Assembly (NCBI GenBank): GCA_963761995.1
Contig: CAVXIU010000006.1
Coordinates: forward strand, 3,681,684 to 3,745,683
Length of the DNA: 64,000 nucleotides
Reading direction: 5' to 3'
Source of the DNA: an uncultured delta proteobacterium
GTDB taxonomy: Bacteria; Desulfobacterota; Binatia; UTPRO1
A model generated the notes under the pieces. The model was not told the DNA's origin. It did not search any database and saw only the letters and a list, made by a program, of their open reading frames with translations. Positions 10,330 through 64,000 of this stretch are shown here, one piece after another; the first letter of the stretch is position 1, and every line of letters begins with the position of its first letter. The position numbers and the translations under genes are program-made.

Positions 10330-10330
10330 G

Positions 10331-22432: not shown

Positions 22433-22649
22433 ACCGCTGGCATGTCGTCAGGTCTATCCGGGAGGGGACCGTTGCGGCAACGAAGGCGAATGGTGGCGAA
22501 GGGGCCGGTCTCCGTGCCACGTATCCTGGCGCGTGACTCGCCCGTCTTGAAGGCTAGCGGAGAGCTCACATGCCCGAACTCGAGGCACCAGAACCCTGCA
22601 TGACGACTTGCGTATCGCGCGCGCGTCGTAGTCTCGGCGGCGTACCCGC

Positions 22650-36129: not shown

Positions 36130-37090
36130 CGACGGGGTGCCGCCTTGCGTGCCTTGCCGCGCGCTGCCGACGGGCGTGCGCGCGTCGCCTTGGCGGCGAC
36201 CGCCGGTCGCGTCGGCAGCGGCTTCACGAGGCCGGCGGGCTCGCGGCCGCGGATACGGGTCAGCTCGTTGATGGTGAGGTCGAGATTCTCGTCGCGCAAC
36301 ATCGGCGCCGCGATGCGCTTCCGGCGGACCGCGCCGAGCGAGATCTCGGCGGCGATCATGTCGGGCTCGTAGTAGGCCGCGCGCGCCAGGGTCTCTCCGC
36401 TGGGGCCGAGGATTTCGGAGCCCCCCAGAACCCGACGCCGTCCTCGAAGCCGACCCGATTCGCGTACACGAGATTCAGCCCGTACGACTCGGCGGTGAAG
36501 GCATTGGCGCGCTGCCAGTAGGCCGCGTTCTCCGGAAGCTCGCCGCGCTCGAGCCCCCAGATCGGGCTCGCCGACGGCACGATCAGGGTGAGCGCCCGGT
36601 CCATGGCGGCGATGTACGCGGTGGAGGGGTGCCAGAGGTCCTCGCAGAGCAAGAGCGCGCTCCGCCCGAAGCGGCAGTCGAACGCCGCGACGCGCTCGCC
36701 CCGTGCCAGGTAGCGGAGCTCGTCGAAGAGGCCGTAGGTGGGGAGATAGACCTTGCGGTGCACGTGGCGGAGCTCGCCGCCGTCGAAGAACATGGCGGCG
36801 TTGTAGAAGCGGTACTCCGGCGTCTCCTCGACCGCCCCGGCCACGAAGGCGACGGTCTCGCGGCTGAGCGCCTTCAAGCGGCGGAGCGCCGGCGCGTCGG
36901 GCCCGAGCGCCACGGTCGAGACCATGTCCTTCAGGAAGTACCCGGTGAGGCTCAGCTCCGGAAAGATCAGCAGGTCGATGCCGCGGCCCTTGGCCTCGCG
37001 GAGCTGGCGCTCGTACTCGGCGAGGTTGGCGGCGACGTCGCCGAGACGAGGGCTCATCTGCGCGACGCCGACGGTGAAGGACGCGGGCAT
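36126..37090 (-). CDS. Carbon-nitrogen hydrolase (nitrilase superfamily, the NadE glutaminase-type partner). It carries a -1 frameshift in a G6 homopolymer at ~36425.
   Basis: Catalytic E (FPELSLTGY) and C ([10 protein letters not shown]) are present. The frame switches at ...GVGFWGG|SEILGPSGE... within gttctgggggg, consistent with either a homopolymer miscall or a true mutation. Confidence 0.7.
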
Positions 37091-37173
37091 GGTCAGCGGA
37101 TTGTCCCGTAGGGCTTGCCCAAAGACAAGGCACGCCTCGCCCGCCGCCCCGCGGCGCGATAGGCTCCGCGCGC

Positions 37174-38067
37174 GTGGGTGACGGACCCGAGCGCCGCGAG
37201 GCATCGACCGAAGACGGCGTTGCCCCGCGACCGGTGCGGCTCGGCAAGCGCGTCCGGCGCGGGCTCGCGGCGCGCGCGATCGGCATCGCGGCGATCGTGC
37301 TGCCGCGGCTCTACATGGCCTACATGTGGCTGGTGCGGGTCACCTCGCGCCACGACGCGCAGCGGCTCGACGACGTGCTCTTCGCCGCCGCCGAGCGCCA
37401 CGATCGGGCGGTCGCCGCGCTCTGGCACCAGGAGGTCTTTTCCGTCGCCTACAACTACCGCCATTTCCACGGCCACACGCTCGCGAGCGTCAGCGACTTC
37501 GGCGAGGTCATCAGCGCAATGCTCCGGCTCTGCAACTTCGTCGTATTCCGCGGCGGCTCGGGCTCGAAGTCGCGCCGCCGTGACGTGCTCGGCGACTTGA
37601 TCGAGCACATGCAGACGACACCGCGCGTGATCTACGGCCTCACCGTCGACGGCTCGCAAGGCCCCGTCTACCGCATGAAGCCGGGCTGCGTCGCGATCGC
37701 GCGCGCCTGCCGGGCGCCGATCGTGCTGGTGCGGACGTGTTACCGGCGCGGCATCATGCTGGCGAGCTGGGACCGCACGCAGATCCCTCTCCCCTGCAAT
37801 CGCCGCGTCACGCTCGCGAGCGGCCCGTACTGGATCCCGCCCGACGCCGACGCGGACGCCTGCGAGGCCTTTCGCGCCCACCTCGAGAACGAGCTGCTCG
37901 AGCTGACGGCCCGCGTGGCCGAGCAGCTCCTGGGCGACCGCGGCCCGTACTGGGGATTTCCCGAAGGCTGGACGGCGCGCTGGCCGCCGGGCCGCCTCGG
38001 CACGCCCCACGGCCCGCACGACCTCCGCCCCGACGACCCGCCGCCGTGGGCCAACCGGCCGGCCTGA
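37174..38067 (+). CDS. Lysophospholipid acyltransferase-like (DUF374-type) protein.
   Basis: GTG start, 297 aa with an N-terminal TM helix. The product call rests on weak recalled similarity. Confidence 0.5.
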   Translation: MGDGPERREASTEDGVAPRPVRLGKRVRRGLAARAIGIAAIVLPRLYMAYMWLVRVTSRHDAQRLDDVLFAAAERHDRAVAALWHQEVFSVAYNYRHFHGHTLASVSDFGEVISAMLRLCNFVVFRGGSGSKSRRRDVLGDLIEHMQTTPRVIYGLTVDGSQGPVYRMKPGCVAIARACRAPIVLVRTCYRRGIMLASWDRTQIPLPCNRRVTLASGPYWIPPDADADACEAFRAHLENELLELTARVAEQLLGDRGPYWGFPEGWTARWPPGRLGTPHGPHDLRPDDPPPWANRPA

Positions 38068-46400: not shown

Positions 46401-49400
46401 TCAGTGGACCGGTTCGAGGAGCGTCTTGCCGGTCAACTTCCAGCCCTTGGACTGCTGGATCCAGAGGCCGCGCACCACCCACTCCTCGTCGCCGACGTAC
46501 ACGTGGGTCGTCATGTCTTGCACCGACATGCCGAGGTCGCCGTATGCCTTCAGCGAGACGATGAAGTAGCCGAGACCAGCCTTGGTCTTCATCTGGTAGA
46601 TGCCGCCGCCGGCGCGCGCGCCGCGGTTCTTGTACCGCACGGACTTCACGTTCTGCACCTCGAGCGATCCCCGCACCAACGAGGCACGGAAGATGACCCC
46701 GTCGGCCGCGTCGCGGAGCTCGATCACGAAGTGGTTGTTGATGAAGTCGACCGGCGCGCCAATCGGAGTGATCAGCCGGCCATGGAAGTCGAACATGTCC
46801 TGCTGGGTGCCGTGCCCGAACTTGATGCGGGCCGGGTCGGCGCAGATCGGCTCGTTGCAGTTGTTGAGGCACTCGTCGAGCGGCTGCTGCGGCTTGTCGG
46901 TGCGGCAGCCGCTGATGGTGTTGCCGTCGTCGCACGTCTCCGTGTTGTTGGACTGGACGACGCCGTCGCCGCACCTGGTGCAGTCGAGGCGGCACCCGTT
47001 CACGCTCGGGACGACGTCCGGCGGATCGCAGGTTTCAAAGTCCGGAGCGCCGTTTTGGACCACGAAGTCGCCGCAGTTCGCCCCGATGCAGATGCCGTTG
47101 TTGGGGTGCAGGCAGAGGAAGCCCATCGACTGCGAGTCGCACGAGTCGTCGGTGCAGGGGTTCACGTCGTCGCAATCGACGGGATCCATGCCGACGCAGG
47201 TTCCGAAGCCGTCGGCCTCGTCGAGCTGGGTGCAGAAGCTGCCGTCGTTGCAAGGCGTACCCGCCGGCAGGAACGAGTCGGCCGGGCAGAACTTGTTGCT
47301 GCCGTCGCAGCTCTCTTCCTGATCGGCCGTGCTGGCGGCCGGGCGACAGACCGTCGAGTTCGGCTCGACGGAATCACCCGGGCACGACGGGCCGCCGCCC
47401 GTGCAGCTCTCGGAGATGTCGCACACGCCACCGGAGCCGCGGCAGACGGTCGCGCTCGACTCGAAGGAGTCGGCCGGACAGGCCGGGCCGGTGCCGGTGC
47501 AGTTCTCCGCCACGTCGCAGACGTCGACGACGGACCGACAGACGGTCGCGCTCGGCTCGAAGTCGTTCGCCGGGCAATGCGACGTTGGTGCCGTCGCAGT
47601 TCTCCTCGACGTCGCAGACGCCCGTGGTGGCGCGGCAGAGGGTGGCGCTGCTGGCGCGCGCGTCGGTCGGACAGGCCGCCGTGCTGCCGGTGCAGTTCTC
47701 GGCGATGTCGCAGACGCCCGTCGCCGAGCGGCAGGTCGTCGAGCTCGCCTCGAAGGCATCGGTCGGACAATCGTCGTTGGTGCCGTCGCAATCCTCGTCG
47801 ACGTCGCAGACGTCGGCCGCCGGACGGCAGAGCGCCGTGCTCTTGGCGTCGGTCGGGCAGTTCGCGCCGGACCCGGTGCAGTTGTCGGCCGTGTCACAGA
47901 CGCCGACACTGGCGCGGCAGAGAGTCGTGCTCGGCTCGAAGTCGTCGGTCGGACACGGCGCCGTCGAGCCGGTGCAGTTCTCGGCAACGTCGCAGACGCC
48001 GTCTGGTGGCGCGGCAGACGGTCGCCGCCGACTGGAAGCCGTTGGCCGGGACAATCGTCGTCGGAGCCGTCGCAGCTCTCGACCACGTCGCAGATGCCGG
48101 CCGACGGCCGACAGACCGCCGTGCTCTTGCTGTCGCCCGGGCAGGCTACGCCGGATCCGGTGCAATTCTCGACCAGGTCGCAGACGCCGACCGCACCGCG
48201 GCAGACGGTCGCCGCGCTCTTGAAGCCCTCGGCCGGACAATCATCGTCGGAGCCGTCGCAGCTCTCGACCACGTCGCAGACGCCGCCCGACGGCCGGCAG
48301 ACCGCCGTGCTCTTCGAGTCGCCCGGGCAGGGCGCGGTCGACCCGGTGCAGTTCTCCGCCAGGTCGCAGACGCCAGCCGCGCCGCGGCAGACCGTTGCCG
48401 CCGATTGGAAGGAGTTGGACGGACAGGTGTTGGCAAAGCCGTCGCAGCTCTCGGCGATATCGCAGACGCCGGCGCTCGGACGACAGACCGCCGTGCTCTT
48501 CGCATCGCTCGGGCAGGCCGCACCCGACCCCGTGCAGTTCTCAGAGGTATCGCAGATGCCGACGGAGCCGCGGCAGAGGGTCGCCGAGGACTTGAAGGCG
48601 TCCGCCGGACAATCGTCGTCGGAGCCGTCGCAGGTCTCAGTCAGGTCGCAGACGCCGGCGGAGCCGCGACAGAGCGCGGTGCTCTTGTCGTCGCCGGGAC
48701 AGGCGGCAGCGGAGCCGGTGCAGTTTTCGGTCAGGTCGCAGACGCCCGCCGAGCCGCGGCAGACCGTCGAGCTCGACACGAAGCCGTTCGGGGGACAGGC
48801 GTTGCTCGAGCCGTCGCAGCTCTCGGTAACGTCGCAGATGCCGCCCGTGGGCCGGCAGACGGCCGTGCTCTTGGAATCGCCAGGACACGCTGCACCCGAG
48901 CCGGTGCAGTTCTCGGCGACGTCACAGACGCCGCCCGAGCCGCGGCAGACCGTCGAGGACGACGCGAAGCCGTCCGCGGGACAGTTGTTGCCGACGCCGT
49001 CGCAGCTCTCGGCGACGTCGCAGACGCCGGCCGAGCCGCGGCAGACCGCCGTGCTCTTGCTGTCGCCCGGACACGCCGCGCCAGAGCCCGTGCAATTCTC
49101 CTGGAGATCGCAGACGCCGCCGGAGCCGCGACAGATGGTCGACGCCGAGGCGACGCCGTCGCCCGGGCAGGCCGCCGCGTTGCCTGGACAGTTCTCGACG
49201 ACGTCGCAGACGCCGGCCGAGGCACGACACGGGGTCGCCGCCGAGACGAACGCGTTGGCCGGACAGACCGAGTTCGACCCGTTGCAGTTCTCGGCGGCGT
49301 CGCAGACCCCCGCCGAGGCGCGACACGTGGTCGCGGCCGAGGCGAAGCCGTCGCCCGGACAGGCCGCCCCGCCGCCGCTGCAGTTCTCGGCGACGTCGCA

Positions 49401-50591
49401 GAGGTGACGGCGCCGCGACAGACGGTCGCTGACGACGCGAAGCCGTCGCCCGGACAGACCGTGCTCGAGCCGGTGCAGTTTTCGACGACGTCGCAGACCC
49501 CGCTCGAAGCACGACACGGGGTGGACGACGACGCGAAGCCGTCGTTCGGACAGAGGTTGCCGACACCGTCGCAACTCTCGGCCACGTCACAGATCGCGCC
49601 GCTCGACGGACGACAAACCGCGGTGCTCTTGGCATCGGCCGGACACGCCCCGGTACCCCCGGCGCAGTTTTCCAGCGGGTCGCACACGCCGCCAGACGCG
49701 CGGCACAGCGTCCCCGCCGACGCGAACAGGCAGGTCGAGGTGCAACACCCGCCGGGCGGGTCGCACTGCTCGGCACTCCCATCAGTCCCACTCACGGTAT
49801 CTGTTTGGGAATCGCCGCAGATGGACGTGTAGAATGCAAGGTCGACGTGCGACCGGTTGTTCTCCGTAAAGCCGGTGCCCTGTCGGTGGGCTCGCCGTGG
49901 TGCCAAAGAAGGTATTCGCCGGCGAAAAGGGGCCGCCGATGGCAGTGGCCGCTTCGATCAGGACGTTGACCGAAAAGCTGGCGACGCCCGAACCGACGCG
50001 CCAGAGCGAGTGCACGCCCTGGGCGGTACCGTTGCCCGTCAAGCCTCGGATGTTGGCGCCGGTGAGCGCCTGCGTCGTCGCGTCACTCACCACCGTGCCC
50101 GCGCCGCTGAACGTGAGCGTCACCCGCGTGAAGACCGTGCCGGGTCCGCCGTTGATCATCGCGGTCTGCCCGGTATAGCGGATGGTGGTCGCGGTGTCCG
50201 TCGACCAAATGAACATCTCGGTGCCGCTCGGCTCCGTCCCGACGCTGTTCATCTTGAGGCCGAACGGCAGCGTCGTGAGTCGGTTGATCCCGATGTACAG
50301 ATTCGAGAACGCGCTCGCCGTGCCGGCGCACGAATAGTTGCCGCCGCCGGCGAGCTTCTCCGAGCCGGCGACCGGCAAGCTACAGCTCCACCCCGCGCCC
50401 GGCGCAGTCGTGGGCCCGTTGCTGATGACGATCGCGCTTGCCGGCGCCGCCGCAACCAGCAGTCCGAGGACCGCGAGGGTCGCCATGCTGACCAGAGCCG
50501 AGCCGTGCCGTTTTGCGCCTGCCGGTGTCGCAGTGCCGAACGCACGAGTCTGGGCCGCCCAAATTCTCCGCTGTGGCCGAGCTAACGTCAT
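46401..50591 (-). pseudogene. Decayed paralog of the giant Cys-rich repeat protein, with at least 4 frameshifts.
   Basis: Signal peptide plus a ~230-aa N-terminal domain (frame of 49782..50876 from MTLARPQRR, ATG complement 50589-50591). Repeats continue in the frame of 48731..49906, then 46401..49574, with a middle segment only readable in the 47374..48240 frame. The C-terminal domain and a CDDGN module are retained. Confidence 0.6.
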
Positions 50592-50640: not shown

Positions 50641-50967
50641 TCACCACGACCCGTGCGATCCGTGGCTGCCGTGAGACCCATGGCTGCCGTGCGATCCATG
50701 GCTGCCGTGACTCCCGTGGCTGCCGTGGGACCCGTGGCTGCCGTGCGACCCGTGGCTGCCGTGACTCCCGTGGCTGCCATGCGAGGCATGGGAGAGATGT
50801 TGGGCAAGCAAAATGTTCTCGTTGTTGGGTTCGGAGCGCAGCGCCTGAGCCGCCTCGGACGCGTCGAGTCCGACATCGGGCTTCAGCGCCTGACGCGCCT
50901 CGTCCCGACTGAGAAAATCCACCGGCGTCTTCCGCAGTAACGGCAGCCCCTTCTCTTTGTCGCTCAT
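50641..50967 (-). CDS. Small protein: 62-aa leader followed by (His-Gly-Ser)x15-Trp. Candidate His-Xaa-Ser repeat precursor (HxsA-like) or His-rich metal-binding peptide.
   Basis: A strong SD (GAAGGAG) sits 7 nt upstream of the ATG. The N-terminal half is well composed (MSDKEKGLPLLRKTPVDFLSRDEARQALKPDVGLDASEAAQALR...). It lies 40 bp after the Tat-protein gene and 50 bp before the Cys-rich pseudogene. Confidence 0.65.
   Translation of the reverse strand: MSDKEKGLPLLRKTPVDFLSRDEARQALKPDVGLDASEAAQALRSEPNNENILLAQHLSHASHGSHGSHGSHGSHGSHGSHGSHGSHGSHGSHGSHGSHGSHGSHGSW
50645..50790 (-). repeat. Tandem 18-bp/9-bp coding repeat (cgtggctgccgtg[ac]gacc)x8 encoding (HGS)n.
   Basis: Perfect 9-bp periodicity. 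Reads as SHGSHG... on the minus strand. Confidence 0.8.
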
Positions 50968-51007: not shown

Positions 51008-51595
51008 TTACCGCAACTTGCCGTCGGCCGAGGGGCCGTCCGCCGCCGCGAAGCGACGGACGCGCTCGCGGTGCGGCAGCAGCTCGGCGAACACGCCGTC
51101 CGCTACCTGGGCCTCGTTGGCCGCCACCGCGTGCGCCAGCTCCGCGACCGCCTGCCCGAGGTGCTCCTCGGTCGGGAGGTCTCCGTAGCCCTGATTCATC
51201 ACCACGAGATCGACCCGGCGCGTGTAGACGACGCCCTCGGGGCTCCCGTCGTTCTGGCAGAGATGCACCCGGTGCGAGCGCCCGCGCTCGTTTTGCAGCG
51301 TCACCACCGCCGACCCGTCCTGCACCGACGTGCAGTCGACGAGCCGCCAGCCGTGCGCCACCACGGCGCCGGCGCCGTACGGCGCCAGGAGATCCCAGGG
51401 CGGCGGCGCAGCGGCGAGCCCCGCCGAGTCCGTGCGCGGTGCCAGAGCGTTCGCCCCGTCCCGGTCGCTCGCAGGCTCATCCGTCGGGTCGCCAACAGGC
51501 CGCGTGGCCGCAATCCCGGTCCCCACGGCCCCAACAGCCAATGCCGCAGCCGCACCCACCGCCGCTTTGCCGATCAAATCGCGTCGTGAAAGCAT
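51008..51595 (-). CDS. Tat-signal secreted protein of unknown function.
   Basis: Twin-arginine motif SRRDLIGKAAVGAAAALAVGA. GAAGGGAG RBS. 195 aa with two Cys. Confidence 0.65.
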   Translation of the reverse strand: MLSRRDLIGKAAVGAAAALAVGAVGTGIAATRPVGDPTDEPASDRDGANALAPRTDSAGLAAAPPPWDLLAPYGAGAVVAHGWRLVDCTSVQDGSAVVTLQNERGRSHRVHLCQNDGSPEGVVYTRRVDLVVMNQGYGDLPTEEHLGQAVAELAHAVAANEAQVADGVFAELLPHRERVRRFAAADGPSADGKLR

Positions 51596-52123
51596 CGCCC
51601 GCTCCCTTCTGGAAACCTAACTCCCTCGCGATTCCGGATTCCCGTACCGACAAACCGCACCGAAGAGGCCCCCACCGCGTGAAACGTCATCGTGGACGAC
51701 GAGCCTTTTCGAAAAACCGATGAGCAATTCGTGCTCGAGGTGGGGGTCGGCATTGGAGGACGTGTCCGGGTAGCAATGTGCGGGGCAACTTGTCAATGAA
51801 AAAGTAAAGGAAGGCGGCGAATTTTGACGCTTTGAGATCGCGTGTGTCTCGGATGAGGATGATCGGCAGCGCCATATCAGCGCATGACGCGGTTGCACGC
51901 GCGGGTGCCGCGCGTCCCCTGCCGCCCGCACCATCGCGGAGGTGCACGACGAGCTGCGACGAGACACGACGCATCATGCGGGCGCGGTCGCTGACGCCAG
52001 GTCTCCGTTCCGGCGGCGTTGTTGCCGGCCGGCTCGGAATTGAGCTAGATCCGGGGCCCTTGCCCGTGAAGCGGGCGGTGGCTCATGCCGGCGACCGAGC
52101 AATGACGCGCGAAAGGAAAGACC

Positions 52124-52600
52124 GTGGCACTCGGTGAGGACGACGTTCGGTCGGAAGACCTCGAATCGCGTCTCGGCGTCTCGCTAGGGCGCGATCACGT
52201 GATGTTCGACGTCGACGAGACGGTCTATCCGCTCGAAGCGATCTACGGGGGAGCATATCTCTTCGTCGACCGATGCTTCGTGTTCCTCTCCCGACCGAGG
52301 CCGCAGGTGGTGAACGTCCGTTTGACGTCGCGTGGGCCGGCGACCTCCGCCGAGCTCGACGCGCTCGCGGGCGAGTTCATGAACGAGATCCTGTCGCAGG
52401 TGACGCGGCTGCGCCTGTCGCAAGCCACCGCTCGCATCCGCGAGTACTATACGGCCGCGGCGTTGCGGGCCGCGGCGTCGGCGCCTTCCGTCGACGATCT
52501 CCTGGCCGAGCTCGACGCGGAGGAGCTCGGGGACGACCCGCTCGAGATCTCGGTTCCCTGGGAAGCGAAGCCCGGCGACAAGGGAAGCGAGCCGAAGTAG
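52124..52600 (+). CDS. Small protein family A, copy 1 (paralog of 62665-63123). Possible HxsD-like accessory or peptide chaperone.
   Basis: GTG start after a GAAAGGAAAG RBS. Conserved core YP.EA.Y.AAY.F.DR..V.L......V..R.......AGEF.NE.L.Q. Confidence 0.55.
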   Translation: MALGEDDVRSEDLESRLGVSLGRDHVMFDVDETVYPLEAIYGGAYLFVDRCFVFLSRPRPQVVNVRLTSRGPATSAELDALAGEFMNEILSQVTRLRLSQATARIREYYTAAALRAAASAPSVDDLLAELDAEELGDDPLEISVPWEAKPGDKGSEPK

Positions 52601-52615
52601 GGCCGCACGTCCCGG

Positions 52616-52861
52616 ATGAGCCAGATCATCTTCGACCGATCGCTCTACACTCCCGAAGCCGTCGAGGCGGCCGCCGCGGCCTACGCCGAGTACGCGGACA
52701 TCACGCTCGAGCGCTCCGGCGACGCGGTGATCGCGACCATCAGCGCCGTCAGCGGCGGTGATCGCGAGACGATCGAGCACTCCTTCTGCAACCACGCGTT
52801 GCAGGAAACGGTCGTGCGGATGCGGCGGGCCGCCGCACCCGAAGCGCCGGAGCGCGTGTAG
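52616..52861 (+). CDS. Small protein family B, copy 1 (paralog of 63120-63366). Possible PqqD-like or other accessory protein.
   Basis: 81 aa. Conserved LYTPEA...A and a single-Cys motif (HSFCNHAL versus EFCNFAL in copy 2). The next gene starts right after the stop (TAGATG). Confidence 0.55.
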   Translation: MSQIIFDRSLYTPEAVEAAAAAYAEYADITLERSGDAVIATISAVSGGDRETIEHSFCNHALQETVVRMRRAAAPEAPERV

Positions 52862-54344
52862 ATGGTCGCCGGCGGAGTAGCGCCTTCGCCCTCGACGGTC
52901 GCGATCGACCGGCTGGGATTTTTTCGTTGGGGACGGATCGCCGAGAAAGTCCTGATCACGACGGATGGCGGCGACTGGGCCTTTCTGACCGAGCCGGAGT
53001 TCGCGCAGCTGCTCGCTGGCGAGATCCTGGAAGACCACCCGCGGTTCGCTGAGCTCCAGGGCGGCGGCTTTCTCCGCACGGGCCTCGATCTCGACGCGCT
53101 CGCGAGCAGGGTCGCACGGCAGCGTGGGCCACGTCGCGCGCGGGCCGGAGCTGCACGTCGTGACGATGAGCCGCCGCGCCGGGCAGGAAGCTCCATCGGC
53201 GGCGCCCGGCGCGCCCGCATGGACCTCGACCGCGAGACGGCCGAGAGGATCGTCGAGGTCGCGCTCCAGAGCAGATCGCCGTCGGTCTCATTCGAGCTGC
53301 AGGCGGCACGCCGGCGAGCCGTTGCTGAACGCCGACGGAGTCCGGCATCTCGTCGAATTCGCGCGGACGACGAACGCACGCGCCGAGGGGAAGACGCTCG
53401 GGTTCACGCTCGTCAGCAACTTGAGCGCCATGACGGCGGAGATGGCGGAGTGGCTGATCGCGAACGAGGTCGCCATCCGGACGTGGCTCGACGGACCGGC
53501 ACGAGCTCCACGAGTGGAACCGGAGATACACGTTGGCGGGAGCGCATGCGGACGTGGTCCGGTGGATCGAGTGGTTCGACCGCCGATACCGCGAGCTCGG
53601 GCTCGATCGCCGACGTCTGGCACGTCGACACAAGGATGACGACGACGCGCCGGACGCTGTCGGCCTGGCGCGAGGTCGTGGACGAGTACGTGGCGCGCGG
53701 GATGCGGTCCATCCAGCTCAGGCCGCTGAGCCCGCTCGGCTTCGACGCCGACGCGTGGCAGACGATCGGGTACACCGTCGAGGAATACCTGGCGTTCTAC
53801 GACCGCGCGTTCGGCTATATTGTTGGAGTTGAATCGCAGCGGGGTGCGCCTCGCCGAGAGGACGGCGTCGGGGTTCCTGAACGGCATCCTGTCCTCCGGG
53901 GATCCCGCCCTGCGGGAGATCCGGTCGCCGTGCTCGGCCGGGACGAGCGAGCTCGCATACGACGTCGATGGGCGGATATTCCCGGGCGACGAGGCGCGGC
54001 GCGTCGACGCGTTCGGGGATCCCATCTTCGCGCTCGGCAACGTGCGGGAGCTCAGGATCGCCGACATCGTCCGGCATCCGACGGCCCGGGCGATTGCGGC
54101 GGCGTCGCTCCTCGACGCGCAGCCGATGTGCGCGGACTGCTGGAACAAGCCGTTCTGCGGCATCTCGCCCGTGTCGACGTACGTCCGGGACGGGGACCTC
54201 TTCGGGCAGCGGCCGCGGTGCTTCGAGTGCAAGGAGCATATGGCGGTCTCCCGCACCCTGTTCGCTCGGCTGGCAAACGAGAGCGACCGGGAGACGAAGG
54301 AGATCCTCGAGCGCTGGACGGCCGGAAGCGGCCGCCCGCGCTAG
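52862..54344 (+). pseudogene. Radical SAM/SPASM maturase, HxsB-like, with an N-terminal KVLITxDxGDW extension. At least 4 frameshifts and the Cx3Cx2C motif is lost.
   Basis: The frame order is 2 -> 0 (FELQ|GEPLLNADG, caused by a 7-bp insertion cacgccg) -> 1 (WLDGPA|ELHEWNRRYTLAG) -> 2 (IADVWHVDTR...YDRAFGYIV) -> 0 (SPASM: SPCSAGTSELAYDVDGRIFPG, CADCWNKPFCG, RPRCFECKE). The expected Cys-motif region reads LHVVTMSRRAGQE. Confidence 0.6.
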
Positions 54345-54345
54345 C

Positions 54346-54440
54346 TCAGAAGGGGGATCCCTCCCCCTTCGCCGCCGCGGCAAAGCCGCGTCGGCTCGTC
54401 CCCCGGCTCGCATTCGCTCGGCCGCGCGCTAACGCGCACG
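54346..54440. repeat. Structured intergenic element, copy 3 of 3.
   Basis: gggggaTCCCtccccc, cgcggcAAAgccgcg and gccgcgcgcTAAcgcgcacgg. About 90% identical to copy 2. Confidence 0.5.
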
Positions 54441-54599
54441 GAGATCGTTGTCGTGGATCCCTCTCCTACTCGATCGGGCCAGTCAGGGGGCCAGCGGGCA
54501 GCGAGAACGCCCGGCCCCCTCCCGTCGTTGAGCAGGCGAAAAATGCCTGGCGAATCGGCGGCCTGATGTGGTAACCCCCCGAGACGGACCGTCGCCCAA

Positions 54600-56478
54600 G
54601 TGAACACGAGCCTCCACTGTCCGACGCCGTCGAGCGGAGAACGCGCGCGACGCCGCGTCCCGGTCGCTGCGATTCGGACCATCGATCTCCGTATCTCGCT
54701 GGTTCGCGGTCCGGCCCGGCTGCCGTGGCGAGGCGGTAGGGGGGCGACCGACGAGCTTTCGCTGAGCGAGGTCCTGGATGGCGCGCGCGCCGTCGCCGGC
54801 CGGCCCGGCGCCTTCCTCGTCGGTGGCGGAGATCCGCTTCGCCGCACCGACCTACCGACCCTGCTCCACGAGCTCGCGCGAGCTCCGGCCCGAGAATCTC
54901 GGCCTCTGCACCGGAGGCGCGGGCGTGACGGGCACGATGGTCGATCGGCTGCGCTCCGTCGGGGTGCAGCGGCTGAGAGTGCCGTTCCACAGTGCACGCC
55001 GGGACGCACACGATTGGCTGGTCGGGCAGCCGGGCGCGCTCGGGACGGCGCTGCGCGCGATCCGTACCTGCGTCGATACCGGGATGCCGGTCGAGGCCGA
55101 GGTCGTCGTCACCCGGCCGACGATGCCGCACCTCGAGGAAACGATCGACGTCCTCACGCGAGTCGGGGTGCGCAAGATCGTCGTTCGACGTCTCGCCACG
55201 GTCGACGTCGGACGGGCCCGAATTCGTCCTGCTCTCGCCGCGCCTGTCGCTGCATCGCCGACGACCTGGAACGCGCGGCGACGACCGCGCTCCAGCGACG
55301 GTCCCGTATCGTGATCCGGGACTTTCCGGTCTGCGCCGCGCCGCGGTTGCGACGGCTCTTCGCCCGCTCCGACGCCGAGCTGTGGCTGACGGCGAACGGT
55401 GCGGTCGATGCCCGCGTCGAAGGCGGCCCGGGGTGCCCGGGCTGTCCCGGTGCGCCGCTCTGCGCCGGAGCGCCGGCGCGACTACGTGGCGCGCTTCGGC
55501 TGGGAAGAGTTCGCCGACCCGGCGCCATGCACGGCGCGCATCGAGGAGAACGTCGCGGCGCAGCAGAGCGTTCGGCCCGCGGGAACGATGGTGCTCTCGT
55601 GGCGCGGGCCGCGCCGCGTACGGTGCGACGCGTGCGCGGATGGCCATTCGGCCACAGGTGGTCACCCGACCGGCGACCATCCGACCGCGGGACCCGAGTC
55701 GACGCGCGCCGTCCGCGCCAGGCTGGTCGAGGCCGCGCGTTTCCGGCCGGCGGTCTTGCGGCTCGTCGGCGCCGAGCTGCTCGCCCATCCGAGCGCGGCT
55801 GCGCTGCTCTTCGACGCGGTCCGGCTCTTCCGGCGCGTCGAATGCGCCGGCGAGGGAAGCGCCATCCTCAAGTGGACCGACGTCGATTTGCGCCGCCTCA
55901 AGGATCTCCCGCGCATCGACGTCGCGTTCTACGGGCCGGACGCCGCGAGCCACGACGCCCACTGCGGAATCGCCGGCTCCTTCGCGGCGACCCTGCGCGG
56001 CGTCGAGCGATTGCGCGAGCAGACGTCGATCGCGGTCGGGGCCTACGCGATCGTCCATGACGCGCGCTCCGTCCCGCTCTTCGCCAACGCCTGGAGCCGC
56101 GGCGAGCTGCCGGGTCATCCACGGTTTCGCCTGGCGGCGGAAGGATCTTCCCTGGACGACGTCGTCGAGTGCGCGCGCCTCCTCCCGCCCGGCGCGGTGC
56201 GGTCGGCATTGTGGGCCGTGCTACCGCACTGCCTGTGCAACGAAGCGGGCCTGGGCTTGGACGAGGGTACTGGCGTCGAGTCCGCGGAGGGCAACGGTCC
56301 GGCGTTCGGCGTCGCCTTCGGGCGACGCGTCGAGTACGCGCCCCGCGGCTCGGATCCGGTCGGCGCCTTCGCAAGCTGCGGCGACGACGGGAATGCATGT
56401 ACCGTGATCGGCTGCCCCGGCACGGCAATCGGATGGCAGCGGAACGCGAGGTCGAAACGATGGATGCAGGACAGCTGA
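54600..56478 (+). pseudogene. Degenerate radical-SAM-like two-domain protein, a paralog of 56460-58335. It lacks the Fe-S Cys triad and has at least 3 frameshifts.
   Basis: The frame order is 0 -> 1 -> 0 -> 1. FLVGGGDPLRRTDLPTLLHELA|RENLGLCTGGAGV...VPFHSARRDAHDWLV aligns with VILSGGEGSIHPKFIDFVRYAREIGYSRVQTVTNGYM...SLHGHTPELHDRL of the next gene. TIDLRISLV occupies the place of CNSRCVFC. Confidence 0.5.
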
Positions 56479-58335
56479 CGGAACGGATGTTGGCGCGCGA
56501 GAGCGTGGCCAACGTCCGGAAGCACTGGGTACGGCTCGTCACGGCGTGCAACAGCCGCTGCGTGTTTTGCCTCGACACGGACACGCCGCGGAACATGTAC
56601 CTCTTGGAGCACGACGTTCACCAGGAGCTCAGGCGCGGACGCGAGGAGCTGAACGCCGACAAGGTGATCCTGTCGGGCGGCGAGGGCTCGATCCATCCGA
56701 AGTTCATCGACTTCGTGCGCTACGCGCGCGAGATCGGCTACAGCCGGGTGCAGACCGTCACCAACGGCTACATGTTCGCGAAGCGGGAGTTCTATCTCAA
56801 CGCCGTCGAAGCCGGGCTCGGCGAGATCACGTTCAGCCTGCACGGCCACACGCCCGAGCTGCACGACCGCCTCACGGGCGTCGAGGGCGCCTTCGACCGG
56901 CTGATGAAGGGCATGATACGCGCCCGCCGCGACGGACGCATCATCGTCAACGTCGACGTCTGCATCAACAAGCAGAACGTGGCGTACATCGACCAGATCG
57001 TCGCGCTCTGCCTTTCGGTGGGCGTCAACGAGTTCGACCTCCTGCACGTCATCCCGCAGGGCGCGGCGTTCGAGAACCGCGACGAGCTCTTCTACGATCC
57101 GGTCGAGCACCTGCCCCGCCTGCAGAAGGTCTTCCGTCTGAACCGCCATCCCAACGTCGTGGTGTGGACGAATCGCTTCCCGGTCGAGTTCCTCGAGGGC
57201 CTGGAAGACCTCATCCAGGATCCGCACAAGATGCTCGACGAGGTGAACGGCCGCCGCTTCCAGGTTCGCAAATACCTCGACGAAGGCGTTCCCCTCGAAT
57301 GCCGGCAGCAGGAGCGGTGCGTGCACTGCTTCATCGAGCCGTTCTGCACCACGGCCGATCGCGTGATCGAGCGCCAGAACCAGGCGAGCTGGGACGTCTG
57401 GTGGATGGGCGCCGCCACCGGCATTGGAAACATGCCTGCGGCGAACGAGCTACCCTTCGGGTGCCGTTCCATCGGCCTCGAGGTCGACGATCTGCCGGAC
57501 GTCGAAGGCCTCGGCGTCCATCCGGACGTCGGCATCTACGTCCGCCCGAAGCGCGCCTCCCGACTGGTCGATCGGGCGCGCGTGCCGAACCGCCTCCTGC
57601 TCGCGCTCCGCGAGCCGGAGCAGCTCGACGTCGTGCTCGGCGGCACGCCGCTTCCCGCGGGGGTCGAGGTCGAGATCGAGCTGAACCAGCGCACGGCCCC
57701 CTGGCTGCTCACGCAGCGCGAGCGCGTGCGGACGTACCTCGACGTGATCCGTCTGCATCAGCCGACCTACGAGTTCCTGAAGGACGCGGTCGCGAACGAC
57801 GTGCGCAATCTGAAGCGCTTCTTCACCGAGCTCGCGCTCCCCATCCGAGCCAGCGGCCTGACCGCGTGCCTCGCCCCGGGGACGCAGCTGGTCGAGGCGC
57901 CCAAGGTGCTCGAGAAGAAGATGTTCGACCCGGAGACCGGTCGCATCGCCATCCGCGAGCTGGCACGGACGCACGTCGTCCACGGCTACCAGGCCAAGTC
58001 GCTCCGCTGCCGCGATTGCGTCGTGACCGCCCGCTGCGAGGGTGCGCACATCAATTTCATCCGCGATCAGGGATTCGCGGAGCTCCAGCCGTTGCGCGAA
58101 GGTGCGTGGGCGGAGAACGCGGCGGCGCAGCTGACAGCACTCCGGCCGACGCCGCTCCCGCGCGTCCGCGACGGTCAGCCACTGCAGCCGGTCGGACCGA
58201 GCCTGCCCGGGCTTCGCGCCGCCGCAAGCGGCCCCGGTCGAGCCGTTGATCGAGTTCGCGCAAAAGAAACGCGAGGAGCGCGAGCGCGCGCGCCAGGAGG
58301 CCGCACAGCGGCGCCAGGTCTCGCTCGAAGGATAA
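56460..58335 (+). CDS. Radical SAM protein (~625 aa) with a Cys-rich auxiliary segment and a long C-terminal extension. One late frameshift at ~58195.
   Basis: Cx3Cx2C in VTACNSRCVFCLD. GGEG, TNGYM and SLHGHTPELHD motifs. Auxiliary Cys in ECRQQERCVHCFIEPFC. The frame changes from 0 to 1 at ctgcccgggcttcgcg (a ccc/ggg run). ATG 56433 is an alternative start. Confidence 0.65.
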
Positions 58336-58344
58336 CGACCGACG

Positions 58345-59382
58345 ATGGCGAACCTCGGCTACCTCCAGCTCACGCGGAACTGCTACCAGAAGTGCCACTT
58401 CTGCAGTAATCCGCCGACCGGCGTGCATCTCGACGAGGCCGAGATGCGCCGCAACATCGATAAGCTCGTCGAGATGGGCTACGACGGCGTGATCCTGACG
58501 GGCGGGGAGCCGAGCACCTCCGAGCTCCTCCTCCCGGCGCTCGCGTACGCGCGCGAGCAAAAGCTCTTCAGCCGCATGATCACCAACGGGCAGAAGCTCG
58601 CCGACAAGGACTTCTTCAAGCGCTGCGTCGACGCCGGTCTCACCCACATCCACGTCTCGCTCCACAGCTACCGGCGCGAGGTCCACGACTTCATCACGCA
58701 ATATCGCGGGGCGTGGGACGTGCTCGTCCGCTGCCTGGAGAACGTCCCGGAGATGGGCATCACCTCCGACATCAACACGGTCATCAACGTCTGGAACTGC
58801 GACCATCTCCACGAGAACGTCCGCTGGATCTGCGAGAACTTCCCGTTCATCCGCCACTTCGTCTGGAACAACATGGACCCCGACGGCAATCGCGCCGAGG
58901 AGAATCCCGACTGCATCCCGCGCCACTACGAGTTCCAGGTGTCGCTCGAGAAGGCGATGGACTACCTCGTGAGCACCGGGCGGAGCTTCCGCGCCGAGCG
59001 GGTCCCGCTCTGCTACATGCGGCGCTACGCGTGGGCCTCGACGGAAGCGCGCAAGATCATCAAGGAGGAGGAGCGCTGCATTCGCTTCCTCGACTTCAAG
59101 GGCTTCATCCACCAGAAGGAGTTCCTGCACGGCAAGGGTGACGCCTGCCAGGCGTGCCGCTTCGACCCGATCTGCGCGGGCATGTTCTCGATGGCGAAGA
59201 GCTACGACGAGCGCGAGCTCTCGCCGATCTTCGACGACCCCACCCCGATGATCGCGAAGGTGCTGAGACGCGAACCGTCGCCGGAGCTCATGGCGCGGCT
59301 CATGGCGCGACGTGGGCGGCGCTCACTGACCGAGCAGCCCTCGCTCGAGCGCCGGCAGCAAGCGATGGAGCGGCCTCTGTAG
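58345..59382 (+). CDS. Radical SAM protein with a C-terminal twitch/SPASM-like Cys cluster. Intact.
   Basis: TRNCYQKCHFC (Cx3Cx2C), GGEPS, TNGQKL, and C-terminal CQACRFDPICAG. 345 aa with no frame breaks. Confidence 0.85.
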   Translation: MANLGYLQLTRNCYQKCHFCSNPPTGVHLDEAEMRRNIDKLVEMGYDGVILTGGEPSTSELLLPALAYAREQKLFSRMITNGQKLADKDFFKRCVDAGLTHIHVSLHSYRREVHDFITQYRGAWDVLVRCLENVPEMGITSDINTVINVWNCDHLHENVRWICENFPFIRHFVWNNMDPDGNRAEENPDCIPRHYEFQVSLEKAMDYLVSTGRSFRAERVPLCYMRRYAWASTEARKIIKEEERCIRFLDFKGFIHQKEFLHGKGDACQACRFDPICAGMFSMAKSYDERELSPIFDDPTPMIAKVLRREPSPELMARLMARRGRRSLTEQPSLERRQQAMERPL

Positions 59383-59386
59383 CGCA

Positions 59387-60790
59387 ATGCCGCGTTTCCT
59401 CTTCATCAATCCGCCGCTCGTCCTCGAGGACGACTTCATCGACTACCCCTTCTTCGCCAATCACGGGTTGCTCGCGTGTGCGGGGTTGGCGGCGCGGTCG
59501 GGTGCGGACGTCGCGGTGCACGACGCGTTCGCGTTGCGCGACTCGGGACGTCACCGCCGCGCCGGCGGGGGATGGGTGCTCGGCGTCGGGCACGACGAGT
59601 TCATCGCGTCGCTGCCGCGCGGCCGCTTCGACGTCGTGGTGCTCGGCGGCCCGGTCTTCCTCCGCATCGAGGCCGCCCATGCGGAGACCCGCGCGCTCAT
59701 CGCCGCCCTCCGCGAGCGATTTCCACGCTCCGTCCTGCTGCTCGCCGACGGCTACGTGGGCGGCCAGCACTACGCCGACTACGACGCCGAGCGGGTCCTC
59801 GCACAGTATCCGGAGTTCGACGCAATTCTGAAATACCCCGGCGAGCGCTTCTTCGCCGAGCCGGAATATCTCGCGACCCTCGGCGACGCGCGCGTCGTGT
59901 TGCGCGAGGCGGAGAGTCGCGGTGCCGATCCGCTCGAGCCGTTCTACTTCCTCGACGGCATCGACGTCGGCAACTTCGATCGCTTCCTCGAGCGCTGCTT
60001 CGGCGACGGGACGTGGCAGAACACGTTCGGCGTCGGCGCGGGGACGCGCTCGTTCGTGACCAGCATCGGCTGCCCGCATCGCTGCATCTTCTGCACGAGC
60101 AACCCGGGCTGGCGACGGACGGGACGCAAGCTCTACCGGCCGATCCCCCTGCCCCGCCTCACGCACTGGGCGTATCTCCTGCAAAACCGTATTCGCCGCG
60201 AAAAAGCTGATCGTGCTGGACGAGATGGTGAACGTCCGGACGGACTTCGAGGCGATGCTCCGCATGCTGAACGAGCTGGACTTCACCTACGATTTCCCGA
60301 ACGGCATGCGCGCGGACCATTTGAGCCGCGAGGCGATCGGCGCTGATGAAAGGACGCGTCGGGATGCTGAGCATCTCGGCGGAGAGCGCGACGCAGGAAG
60401 ATGTGAACGGACCCATCGGCAAGGGGCAGCCGCTCGACGCGATCCGACGCGTCGCGGAATGGTGTCGCGAGCTCGACGTGCCGCTGATGAGCCACTACAT
60501 CATCGGCTTCCCCTGGGAGACGCCGGCGCACGTCACCGGCACGCTCGAGATGGCGTGGGAGCTGTACGAACGCTACGGGGCTTGGCCGTCGATGCAGTTC
60601 GCGACCCCGATTCTCGGCACCGCGCTGCACGAGCAGTGCGTGTCCATGGGTCTGATTCCGCCTGAAGGCATCGACCTCAAGGACGGCGCGCTCTTCCAGC
60701 ACCGCCCGTGCTTCGATCCGCCCGGCCTGTCCCCCGGGGTACCTCGAGAAGGCACGCGCCGCGTTCGACATGAAGATCGCGGCCCGTGAG
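59387..60790 (+). CDS. B12-binding-domain radical SAM protein (class B-like), with at least 3 frameshifts.
   Basis: N-terminal cobalamin-binding-like fold (MPRFLFINPPLV...). SFVTSIGCPHRCIFCTSNPGW (Cx3Cx2C). It continues in frame 0 (KLIVLDEMVNVRTDFEAMLRMLNELDFTYDFPNGMRADHLS), then frame 1 (LSISAESATQEDVNGPIGKG...IIGFPWETPAHV), then frame 2 (YLEKARAAFDMKIAAREAQQ). The true stop is unclear. Confidence 0.6.
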
Positions 60791-61705
60791 GCGCAGCAAG
60801 CTCATCATGAACATCACCTACAAGTGCGCCAACCGCTGCGTTTTCTGCGCCACCGGCGATCGCGTGTCGGCCGCGCTCGCGTGGGACAAGATCGACGAGA
60901 TCCTCCGGCAGCACCGCGAGCAGGGCACGGACCAGCTCGACATCGACGGCGGCGAGCCGACGACGCACCCGCGCCTGACGGATGCCATCGAGCTCGCGCG
61001 CGAGCTCGGCTACCGCTCGATCAACCTGACGACCAACGGCCGCCTGCTGCGCGACCGGGATCTCACCGAGCGCCTCGTGAACAGCGGCATCACGCATCTC
61101 CTGATCTCGCTCCACGGCGCCACCGCCGAGGTGCACGAGGCGGCGACGGACGCGCCGGGCAGCTTCGCCGAGACGATCGCCGGCATCGACAACGTCATGG
61201 CTCTCCGGCCGGCCCACGTGGAGACCGGCATCAACGTCACGATCGTCCGCTCCAACGTCGACCATCTCATGGCGCTCACCGCGCTCGCGGTGGCGAAGGG
61301 CGTTCGTCGAAGATCAACTTCCAGTTCACGACGCCGTTCGGCCGCGCCTGGGAGGACGTGGTGCCTCCGCTCGAGGAGGCGGCGAACGCGGTCATGCGCG
61401 TCATCGACCGCTACGCGGACGAGATCCAGATCCACGTCATCAACGCGCAGTTCTGCGTCTTCCCGGGGTACGAGCGGTACGTCGTCGGCGATCTGCAGAA
61501 GATGGGTCGCACGATGGTCTTCGCCGCGGATCCCCGCTTTCCCGAGCAGGTCAACCTCTACGAGTGGCTGGGAGCGCGGCGGGAGAAGCAGGCCGTCTGC
61601 GCGGCATGCCCGTGGACGACGGTGTGCGAGGGCTTCCAGGTGTTCCGCCAGGAGAAGCCCGACATGCGGGTCGAACGGAGCCGGCCCTTGGTGGCGACCG
61701 CATGA
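60786..61705 (+). CDS. Small radical SAM protein with a twitch/SPASM-like C-terminus. One frameshift at ~61300.
   Basis: NITYKCANRCVFCATGD, DGGEPT and TTNGRLL motifs. The frame changes from 0 to 2 after LAVAKGV. C-terminal CAACPWTTVCEGF. Its stop overlaps the next ATG as ATGA. Confidence 0.65.
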
Positions 61706-62659
61706 CCGCGACCGTCGTGAAGCTCGGCGACGAGTGGTTCGAGTACGCCGACGTCCTGGTCGACGTGATGATCGGCTACGCGTGCAACGTGCAGTGCGAC
61801 TACTGCTCGATCACGGACGAGATGCGGAAGGAGAACATGGCGACGCTGCCCGTCATGGCGGCGCTCGCCGATGCGCGCCGGCGGGGGGCGACGAAGGTCG
61901 CGTTCGGCGGCGGCGAGCCCACCATCCGGCGGAGCCTCCTGCCGCTCGTGCGCTGGTGCCGCGACCGCGGCTGGCGCTCCATCAAGATCCCGTCGAACGG
62001 GTTGATGTACTCGTATCAATCGTATCGCGCAGGAAGCGTGCGACGCGGGGATAACCGATTTCCACATCTCGTTCATGGCGCACACCGACGAGCTCTACGC
62101 TCGCATCATGGGGAGACCGGACGCGCTGTCGCTGGTGACCGAGGGAGTGCGCAATCTGCAGGCGCTCGGCCGCAGGCCGGTCGGCGATCTCATCATCAAG
62201 CACGACACGTGGATGCATCTCGCCGACATCGTCGAGCACTGGGCGGGTTTCGGCATCGACACCTTCAACCTCTGGCTGGTGTCGTTGAGCGACCGCAACC
62301 GCGACAATCTCGAGTCGCTGCCGATGGTCTCGGAGATGCGTGACGGGATCGAGGCCGCGTTCGAGCGCGGCAAGCGGCTTGGCGTCACCGTTCGCTCCCG
62401 GCACATCCCGCGCTGCATGCTGCCGGGGTACGAGGACCACGTCGTCGACCTGCGCGAGGACAAGGTGCTCGTCGTGACGCCGCGCGCGACGTTCGCGCTC
62501 TGGGAGTCGAAGATCTCGCCGAACACCTATGCCGAGAAATGCAACGGGTGCCGGTACCAACACGGCGTCTGCCTCGGGCTCCGTCGCGACTATCTGGAGC
62601 GCTGGGGCGACGCGGAGCTCCGGCCCACCTACGACTCCGCGGCGGCTCCGGCGGCGTGA
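61702..62659 (+). CDS. Small radical SAM protein with a SPASM-like C-terminus. One frameshift at ~62015.
   Basis: MIGYACNVQCDYCS (Cx3Cx2C), GGGEPT, and PSNGLM| then EACDAGITDFHISFMAHTDELYARIMG in frame 2. C-terminal CNGCRYQHGVC. Confidence 0.65.
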
Positions 62660-62664
62660 GGACG

Positions 62665-63123
62665 ATGACACGCGTGCAAATCGAGACCTTGGATCCAGCA
62701 ACGGCGACCCTGACGCTCTCGCTCGACGTCGGCCTGTACCCGCGCGACGTTCTGTACGCCGCCGCGTACGTGTTCCTGGACCGCGCCTACGTGCTGCTCG
62801 ACCGCCAGGACTCGCGGTTCATCGTGCACTTCCGCGCCAAGCGCCCCCTCGAGGAGGCGACGTTCCGCGCCATGGCGGGCGAGTTCGAGAACGAGCTCCT
62901 CGCGCAGGCGCTGCGCCATCAAGTCGTCGACGCGAACCAGCGCATCATCGAGGACGTCGTCGCGGTCGCCATCGCGGGCGCGTCGGTCAGCGACGAACCC
63001 GAGGCGGGTTCCGCGGCGGAGCATCCTCCGCTCATCGACCCGACAGACCCGGAGGACGGCTTCCTCGGCGACCCGCTCGGCATCGCCCGACCATTCGAGC
63101 CGGAGAAGCAAGGTACCGAATGA
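62665..63123 (+). CDS. Small protein family A, copy 2.
   Basis: 152 aa. Homologous to 52124-52600 (LYPRDVLYAAAYVFLDRAYVLLDR...MAGEFENELLAQALR). Begins 6 nt after the upstream stop. Confidence 0.6.
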   Translation: MTRVQIETLDPATATLTLSLDVGLYPRDVLYAAAYVFLDRAYVLLDRQDSRFIVHFRAKRPLEEATFRAMAGEFENELLAQALRHQVVDANQRIIEDVVAVAIAGASVSDEPEAGSAAEHPPLIDPTDPEDGFLGDPLGIARPFEPEKQGTE

Positions 63124-63366
63124 CGTCGAGCGATACGGACGTAGTGACGATCCGCCTCCATCGGATGCTGTACACGGAAGAAGCAATCGCCGAGGCCGCG
63201 ACCACGTTCGCCGGACTGGCATCGTTCGCCGTCCGTGCCGACGGCGAGCACCACGTCGTGGACGTCAGCGCGATCACGCGCGACGTCGACGGTGACGTGG
63301 TCGCCGAGTTCTGCAATTTCGCGCTCGCGAACTCGGCGCGCGCTGAGCGGAGCGGTCATGCTTGAC
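63120..63366 (+). CDS. Small protein family B, copy 2.
   Basis: 81 aa. ATGA overlap with family A copy 2. LYTEEAIAEAATTFAG...AEFCNFAL aligns with copy 1. Confidence 0.6.
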
Positions 63367-64000
63367 GCCGAGCTCCTGCCCCACGGGCGCCAGGTCGACT
63401 TCACGGATCTCTCCCCGGAGCGCTGGAAGCCGGGCTTCGCGACGCCCTTCAACCAGCGGATGATTCGCGGCAAGGTCCTCATCACGAACGACTTCGGGGA
63501 CTGGCTGCTCCTCACCCCCGACGATTTCCGATCCTTCGTCGAGGGACGGCCAGCAGCCCGGCGAGCCGCTCTACGAAAAGCTCCGCACGGCGAACTTCAT
63601 CGCGCAGGCGGTCGACGTACGGGCGCAGGCGGAGCGCTGGCGACGGAAGAAGCAGTACCTGTTCCACGGCCCCACCCTGCACGGCCTCGTGCTGACGCAT
63701 CGCTGCAACCACGGCTGCCAGTACTGCCACAGCTCGGTCGTCGGGATGGAGCGGACCGACACCGACATGTCGTTCGAGGTAGCGGAGGGCGCGGTCGACG
63801 TGGCGTTCCAGTCGACCGCATGGGCCATCACGATCGAGTTCCAGGGCGGCGAGCCGACCGCGAACTGGGAGGTGCTGCGGCACGTCGTCGAGTACGCGAC
63901 CCGGAAGAACCAGGACGTCGGAAAGATCCTCTCGTTCGCGCTCGTCACGAATCTCTCGCTGATGGACGACGAGCGGCTCGAGTTTCTCCTCGCCCACAAG
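63358..64000 (+). CDS. HxsB-like radical SAM maturase, 5' part (runs off the window). One frameshift at ~63545.
   Basis: Its ATG overlaps the B2 stop by 8 nt. The N-terminal extension KVLITNDFGDWLLLTPDDFRSFVEG parallels the 52862 gene. The frame then shifts to ...LVLTHRCNHGCQYCHSS... (Cx3Cx2C), FQGGEPT and LVTNLS. Confidence 0.65.
   Translation, partial: MLDAELLPHGRQVDFTDLSPERWKPGFATPFNQRMIRGKVLITNDFGDWLLLTPDDFRSFVEGRPAARRAALRKAPHGELHRAGGRRTGAGGALATEEAVPVPRPHPARPRADASLQPRLPVLPQLGRRDGADRHRHVVRGSGGRGRRGVPVDRMGHHDRVPGRRADRELGGAAARRRVRDPEEPGRRKDPLVRARHESLADGRRAARVSPRPQ

Follow-up and report, generated by a model that had tools for sequence, protein, structure and literature searches.

The subject of this analysis is a stretch of 64,000 nucleotides (the window; G+C ~70%) from contig CAVXIU010000006.1 of an uncultured delta proteobacterium, and within it an operon of radical S-adenosylmethionine (rSAM) genes located beside the gene of a His-Xaa-Ser (HXS) repeat peptide. 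From 52.1 kb to the window end the genes form a tight single-strand operon, 11 of whose genes lie in the window, all on the forward (+) strand, in the order D1, Dr1, g1, g2, g3, g4, g5, g6, D2, Dr2 and g8. A first-pass annotation, made from the letters and their open reading frames (ORFs), had described a co-directional, coupled array of eight rSAM genes at this place. The array was confirmed, as the rSAM-fold genes at 52.8-64 kb make up a co-directional, translationally coupled run with overlap or coupling junctions that could be read directly (TAGATG at 52859-52864, ATGA at 61702-61705 and 63120-63123), but the rSAM-fold genes number seven (g1-g6 and g8) and not eight. Radical_SAM or SPASM matches were obtained for the window pieces and for intact orthologs. 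Catalytic cysteine motifs are present in g3, g4, g5 (two), g6 and g8, so that six rSAM domains are spread over five genes; g1 and g2 are without one.

Orthologous loci were collected with the g4 protein (58345-59382) as query, which yielded 80 genome and 80 metagenome loci; where 162 loci are mentioned below, they are those fetched around g4 homologs or around two unrelated genes. The nine closest loci (L001-L006, L009, L017 and L028) match 52-64 kb in whole or in part, with ~72-90% DNA identity, and keep the same gene order. In the short-read assemblies among them (L004, L005, L006 and L028) each gene reads as a single uninterrupted ORF, so that the comparison proposed by the first-pass annotation did find intact versions of the operon.

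The presumed substrate is encoded at 50641-50967 on the reverse (-) strand, upstream of the maturase operon and divergent from it. Its product of 108 residues scored 120.2 bits on the HxsA4 precursor model NF038313 (cut-off 55), and it is through this model that the locus is seen to hold a substrate of the HxsA family with tandem His-Xaa-Ser repeats; on the original HxsA model, TIGR03979, it reached only 18 bits against a cut-off of 122. The sequence, MSDKEKGLPLLRKTPVDFL...AQHLSHA(SHG)nSW, starts with a conserved leader (LPxLRKxPxDFL...), continues with 17 His-Xaa-Ser repeats, mostly SHG, and ends in Ser-Trp. No peptidoglycan-binding domain was detected in HxsA4 by a domain search. A scan of the 162 loci gave 57 places with a homologous precursor, of between 4 and 49 SHG repeats, and some related loci carry two HxsA4-type precursor copies. 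Between HxsA4 and the promoter region of the operon sits a further gene (51008-51616, -) for a protein with a twin-arginine-type signal, whose membership of the system is uncertain: its sole family match is a weak one to TIGR02811 (19.5 bits, under the cut-off), and the region aligns to L001 with 80% DNA identity.

The genes of the small partner proteins are all intact. D2 (62665-63123) is an HxsD by TIGR03976 (59.4 bits, cut-off 50), and the HxsD-like D1 (52124-52600), intact in orthologs too, falls just under the same cut-off with 44.4 bits. Dr1 (52616-52861) and Dr2 (63120-63365) belong to HxsD_rel, with 59.2 and 60.4 bits on NF038315 (cut-off 41).

Of the two HxsB-type genes, g8 (63358-64000) is cut by the window end and encodes an rSAM/SPASM protein with the motif RCNHGCQYC. 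Its pieces in the window share 72% and 85% identity with the ortholog in L006, which scored 507 bits on the HxsB model TIGR03978 (cut-off 370), in agreement with the first recognition of this gene as HxsB. The other, g1 (52862-54344), is a Cys-less HxsB paralog with a SPASM region; its L006 ortholog reached 325 bits on TIGR03978, short of the cut-off, and the CxxxCxxC motif is missing in 5/5 aligned orthologs. Once the insertions described below are removed, g1 reads as a 491-residue ORF with no internal stop. Downstream of HxsB, two relatives encode an aKG-HExxH peptide beta-hydroxylase (TIGR04267, 88 bits), at 17685-18974 in L002 and at 16745-18049 in L017; judged by this gene order, the window's own hydroxylase would sit just past the window end. 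L002 carries a further rSAM gene from near 20746.

The remaining rSAM-fold genes, g2-g6, resemble HxsC at some distance. The best NCBIfam match of each of g3-g6 was HxsC or HxsC4, all far under cut-off; for g2, HxsC came third, behind two non-Hxs rSAM families. Scores of g2-g6 on one or other model span 62-116 bits, the best being 98.6 on HxsC (g4; TIGR03977, cut-off 268) and 115.8 on HxsC4 (g5; NF038332, cut-off 500), so these proteins are HxsC-like relatives only. The 345-residue g4 (58345-59382; Radical_SAM 77 bits) is the sole intact rSAM ORF, as had been proposed, and its protein is 64-98% identical to its relatives in 160 loci. The motif ACNSRCVFC marks g3 (56460-58335; Radical_SAM 63-66, HxsC4 90 and HxsC 87 bits), which has a C-terminal extension of ~400 residues and lies in one frame in 112/115 loci. 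In g6 (61702-62659) the motif is ACNVQCDYC; its orthologs are intact, and the ortholog scored 62 bits on Radical_SAM and 82 on HxsC4.

The two-domain, HxsC-like g2 (54600-56478) had been called a Cys-less degenerate paralog. Its ortholog scored 53.6 bits on Radical_SAM and 61.6 on HxsC, with the Radical_SAM match beginning at profile position 25. That the rSAM cysteine motif is missing was upheld, but the single ortholog translation that was looked at, from L004, lacks it as well, and orthologous loci carry the gene intact, so that "degenerate" does not apply. Since the loss of the motif in g1 and g2 is shared with their orthologs, both genes are, as judged from the alignments, conserved and putatively non-catalytic paralogs and not products of decay.

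The difference in gene number comes from g5 (59387-61705), which had been read as two separate genes, 59387-60790 and 60786-61705. In orthologs these halves form a single 770-residue ORF, and we therefore count them as one gene and seven rSAM-fold genes in all. The fusion consists of an N-terminal domain, a class-B-like rSAM domain (GCPHRCIFC) and an HxsC-like rSAM domain (KCANRCVFC), with two Radical_SAM stretches; a counterpart of at least 90% coverage exists in 40 loci and is in one frame in 39 of them. In the window it appears as six tblastn pieces in frames 2, 3, 1, 2, 3 and 2, which are 73-92% identical to the 770-residue ORF of L004 and 81-94% identical to that of L006. The first domain had been described as a B12-binding, class-B-like rSAM. 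The class-B-like layout holds, in that HpnJ and AprD4 align through their rSAM cores only, starting near residue 220, but the B12-binding domain PF02310 gave no match at E<=0.01 in g5. The resemblance to class B is thus one of position, an HpnJ/AprD4-like core placed after an N-terminal domain of ~215 residues. A first core after ~215 residues is likewise found in AprD4 (Protein Data Bank 6fd2) and in HpnJ, both of them class-B-like enzymes with cobalamin use unproven, and similarity to both is sub-threshold.

With the exception of g4, the rSAM-fold genes do not read through in the window. Plots of G+C at third codon positions (GC3) by frame and a codon-usage hidden Markov model (HMM) that penalises stops revealed changes of frame every ~100-500 nucleotides (nt), with no stops at the switch points. 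Multiple DNA alignments resolved these into 18 window-private frameshifting indels inside genes, each of 1-2 nt and 20 nt in total, by which the frames of 6/7 rSAM-fold genes are disrupted relative to their intact orthologs. They fall in g1 (six: 53121, 53209 (+2), 53305, 53501, 53609 and 53823), g2 (four, each +1: 54876, 55210, 55254 and 55479), g3 (one, +1: 58212), g5 (five: 60183, 60339, 60726, 60795 and 61302 (+2)), g6 (one, +1: 62024) and g8 (at least one, +1: 63552). The frame changes noted in the first pass are therefore real features of the sequence as given, but its count of one to four per gene was not, as a gene can hold up to six insertions.

All 18 events are insertions; there was no frameshifting deletion, and the only private deletions inside genes were of 3 nt and 6 nt and kept the frame. 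No insertion lies in a homopolymer, and homopolymer slippage was ruled out from the insertion contexts. Similar small insertions occur in non-coding DNA at 52070, 52082 and 54589. Removing the 20 nt restored seven ORFs with no internal stops, six of them full-length with the expected stop codon and the seventh, g8, running to the window end.

The first-pass annotation had offered two readings of these lesions, a decaying or hypervariable island and, as a fallback, an assembly from poor-coverage sequence. Genuine recent pseudogenisation, in which real frameshift mutations switched the island off, makes predictions about selection and about the spectrum of lesions. On the window branch, private substitutions in g3-g6 numbered 40 synonymous to 14 non-synonymous, against a neutral expectation of 26% synonymous (p=3e-13), and in g1 the ratio was 44:38, equal to that of intact orthologs; selection on g1 and g3-g6 has therefore been as strong in the window branch as in genes that are intact. 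A split of 18 insertions to 0 deletions has a chance of ~4e-6 if both are equally likely. Bacterial pseudogenes have a deletion-biased indel spectrum, and a series made of insertions only, with 0 nonsense codons, is the opposite of that bias.

The rate of frame switches was compared with that of the orthologs. Across 160 loci, 650 kb of orthologous coding sequence contained 7 switches (0.011/kb), with none in 153/160 loci and one or two in each of the rest. The window has, within 10 kb, 13 switches by tblastn and 18 by DNA alignment, or at least 1.3/kb. Indels that occur naturally among the orthologs are multiples of three, or sit at junctions between genes or at gene ends, or fall in a hypervariable stretch of g2 (~55640-55690), where adjacent gaps add up to multiples of three.

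Lesions also occur outside the operon. Core genes elsewhere in the window had been said to need no frame change, a statement that did not survive, as breaks were found in four unrelated genes. A gene of the FAD/amine-oxidase type (CrtI-like; 6962-9026, +) is split over four frames and has window-private +1 insertions at 8172 and 8242. A search with a fragment of it retrieved only three homologous proteins, at least two of which are themselves frameshifted translations; one homolog (P0003) reads through two of the breaks. P0003 and a second homolog, P0001, come from European Nucleotide Archive (ENA) metagenome contigs with names of the Flye-style form "contig_N" (L161 and L162), where the gene lies at 9539-11601 and 8868-10884, respectively. 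In a three-way alignment the window had 2 private +1 insertions, L161 had 6 and L162 had 5, all at different sites. A giant gene with zinc-ribbon, adenylate/guanylate cyclase and AAA ATPase regions (15559-22447, -) is broken near 21870, inside the cyclase domain, where the Guanylate_cyc match ends at profile position 156/183; its remaining 6.3 kb are one clean ORF. In a nitrilase-like carbon-nitrogen hydrolase gene (36129-37198, -) the CN_hydrolase match ends at 219/256 at a break near 36430, past which the motif resumes in another frame. A gene for a large secreted, Cys-rich, disintegrin-like repeat protein (46404-50540, -) has about five frame changes; its repeat is CRxxxGxCDxxExCxGxxxxCP, and its internal repeats are ~65-70% identical in DNA. 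Among the relatives of the operon itself, L002, a Microflora Danica metagenome-assembled genome (MAG), has a +1 non-homopolymer insertion of its own in g3.

The best explanation of the frameshifts is thus that the consensus of an error-prone, probably long-read, metagenome assembly contains spurious insertions. This reading rests on the evidence of selection, the insertion-only spectrum, the rates at other loci, the breaks outside the island and the insertions in related contigs, and it agrees with the fallback of the first pass, poorly covered assembly, and not with its idea of a decaying or hypervariable island. The organism itself most likely carries intact genes. Together with the family assignments above, we consider it highly probable that the locus is an expanded HxsA4-type HXS maturase operon and that its frameshifts are assembly insertion errors.

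Several observations weigh against this conclusion. In the first half of g2 (54600-55600) private substitutions were 6 synonymous to 22 non-synonymous, which looks neutral, while the same region in orthologs gave roughly 1:1 to 1:1.5. The patch also holds the four insertions of g2, and the ratio could be due to substitution errors, to misalignment near the insertions or to real relaxation of selection. Errors are also distributed very unevenly: the last 18 kb contain 23 switches, ~12x the density of the first 46 kb with its 5, and the 6.3-kb ORF at 15559-21891 contains none. Such unevenness requires a local cause, which might be a low depth of this accessory island, or polishing with reads of related populations that share its conserved segments. 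No other assembly of this species turned up among genome contigs, metagenome contigs or the protein database, the best relative having 98% identity in the g4 protein and ~89% in DNA. On the side of identity, no equivalog-level HxsC was found in the operon, and the mechanism of maturation put forward below would hold by analogy with canonical HXS.

Pseudogenisation is the strongest of the competing explanations, and we consider it unlikely. The given sequence does contain the lesions, which crowd into its last 18 kb, the first half of g2 looks neutral, and defence-like accessory islands are frequently lost. In g1 and g3-g6, however, there is no sign of relaxed selection, and the operon has neither the nonsense codons nor the frameshifting deletions expected of decay. 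The lesions are not specific to the island, since unrelated genes and related long-read contigs have switches of the same kind at other sites. A variant of this explanation would be a real, localised burst of insertions only (18 events in 11 kb) that silenced a defence-like HXS island so recently that its genes still look selected. This we regard as improbable; if true, it would point to an insertion-biased mutagenic or silencing process at the locus of a kind not known so far.

Less credible still is a hypervariable or recoded locus in which phase variation, programmed +1 frameshifting or transcript slippage restores the frame. Every shift is in the same (+) direction, as recoding would have it, but the 18 sites have no homopolymer, simple-repeat tract or shared motif, the orthologs need no recoding, with most loci free of any switch, and like insertions occur in the non-coding DNA around the genes. 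That the array consists of unrelated housekeeping rSAM genes (MoaA, PqqE, NirJ) that are merely adjacent can practically be dismissed: public sources do label relatives of g4 "MoaA/NifB/PqqE/SkfB family" and there are weak, sub-threshold matches to MoaA/PqqE/NirJ-type families, but the scores (MoaA 53-58 bits against 284, PqqE 43-58 against 381) lie so far under the cut-offs that, with the gene context, these identities were ruled out, HxsB, HxsC or HxsC4 is the best match for every gene but g2, and the array lacks the usual partners but is flanked by HxsA4 and HxsD genes, which accompany it from locus to locus.

The HMM classification suggested in the first pass thus placed the genes in HXS families and not among housekeeping rSAM enzymes, and its broader proposal, that an elaborate system for modifying peptides lies next to a repeat peptide, is borne out by the scores of HxsA4 (120 bits) and of the HxsB ortholog. 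The families TIGR03976-03979 have been attributed to Haft and Basu (PMC9062424). Canonical HXS is the four-gene set HxsD-HxsB-HxsC-HxsA and acts against phages (Li et al., Nat Commun 2026, PMC13128918); more than 99.8% of HXS systems have four genes, and 99.7% are in Pseudomonadota (PMC13128918). In these systems HxsA is matured by HxsB, HxsC and HxsD, among the changes being N-terminal processing and a shift of +8 Da at an SHRSS motif; HxsD is a binding partner of HxsC, and once mature the effector prevents the entry of phage DNA (PMC13128918).

The operon described here shares with canonical HXS a His-Xaa-Ser repeat substrate, an HxsB rSAM/SPASM protein, HxsC-type rSAM proteins and the small HxsD, and the order HxsD-then-HxsB is kept in both of its modules. 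In contrast to the four-gene systems, the part of it inside the window runs to 11 genes, HxsA4 being encoded upstream in the opposite direction; seven of the 11 have the rSAM fold, two of them HxsB-type and two without a Cys motif. HxsD_rel proteins and the class-B-like fusion are added, as is, in relatives, the HExxH hydroxylase downstream. The substrate also differs from canonical HxsA, having 108 residues, uniform SHG repeats and no detected peptidoglycan-binding domain. As the peptide and both HxsD_rel small proteins passed the cut-offs of the NCBIfam models NF038313 and NF038315, the substrate family of this variant has already been delimited by curators; the "rare HxsC4" model NF038332 was not reached (best 116 bits, cut-off 500). 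A literature search found no paper mentioning HxsA4 or HxsC4. Because of this, and because the HXS families and NCBIfam models are known, the multi-rSAM, Myxococcota-type architecture is an undescribed variant of a known system.

Other known systems are more distant. HxsB and g1 share the rSAM/SPASM architecture of PapB, the SCIFF maturase, QhpD and anSME, with weak matches far under cut-offs, and maturases of this type follow the same logic of a leader peptide and a repeat core; as HxsA4 has no Cys, thioether chemistry is not expected. Pseudo-SAM proteins such as TIGR04347 have, like g1 and g2, an rSAM fold without cluster-binding cysteines, again with sub-threshold similarity. PADLOC (2023), which has no HXS model, returned only weak viperin-core matches, and no defence-system call was made on that basis.

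By analogy with the canonical system, HxsD and HxsD_rel may act as partner or adapter subunits that present the repeats of HxsA4 to HxsB and to the HxsC-like enzymes, and these enzymes would install several radical modifications on its His/Ser/Gly units. The Cys-less g1 and g2 proteins could serve as non-catalytic partners, and the HExxH hydroxylase encoded downstream in relatives might contribute one further modification step. The mature HxsA4 product may be either a defence effector, as in Escherichia coli, or a secreted natural product.

These results call for caution in reading assemblies of this kind, as what resembled a decaying island is most likely a patch of insertion errors; gene callers can be expected to break this operon into fragments, and pseudogene counts for such long-read MAGs to come out inflated. 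The operon minus its 20 inserted bases can serve as a template for expression and for mass spectrometry of the modified peptide.

What emerges is a much larger relative of HXS, widespread among environmental Myxococcota-like bacteria and strongly conserved there. Some of the collected loci are in marine contigs, others in genomes assigned by label to Myxococcota or Deltaproteobacteria, to Binatia and to other phyla. A smaller core of g2-g3-g4 ... HxsD-HxsB recurs in distant loci; these are mostly marine and have a g2-like gene, g3, g4, HxsD, HxsD_rel, an HxsB-like gene, HxsA4 and one HxsC-like rSAM gene. At the junction of g6 and D2, orthologs carry 1-5 kb of unrelated DNA (8860-13840 in L004, 11195-14652 in L006 and 14367-15445 in L002), which in L004 encodes an RND/MMPL-like transporter and a KdpD/KdpE-like two-component pair. 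The corresponding junction of the window (62659-62665) has no such DNA, and this difference between the window and its orthologs indicates that the two HxsD-HxsB modules are separable units.

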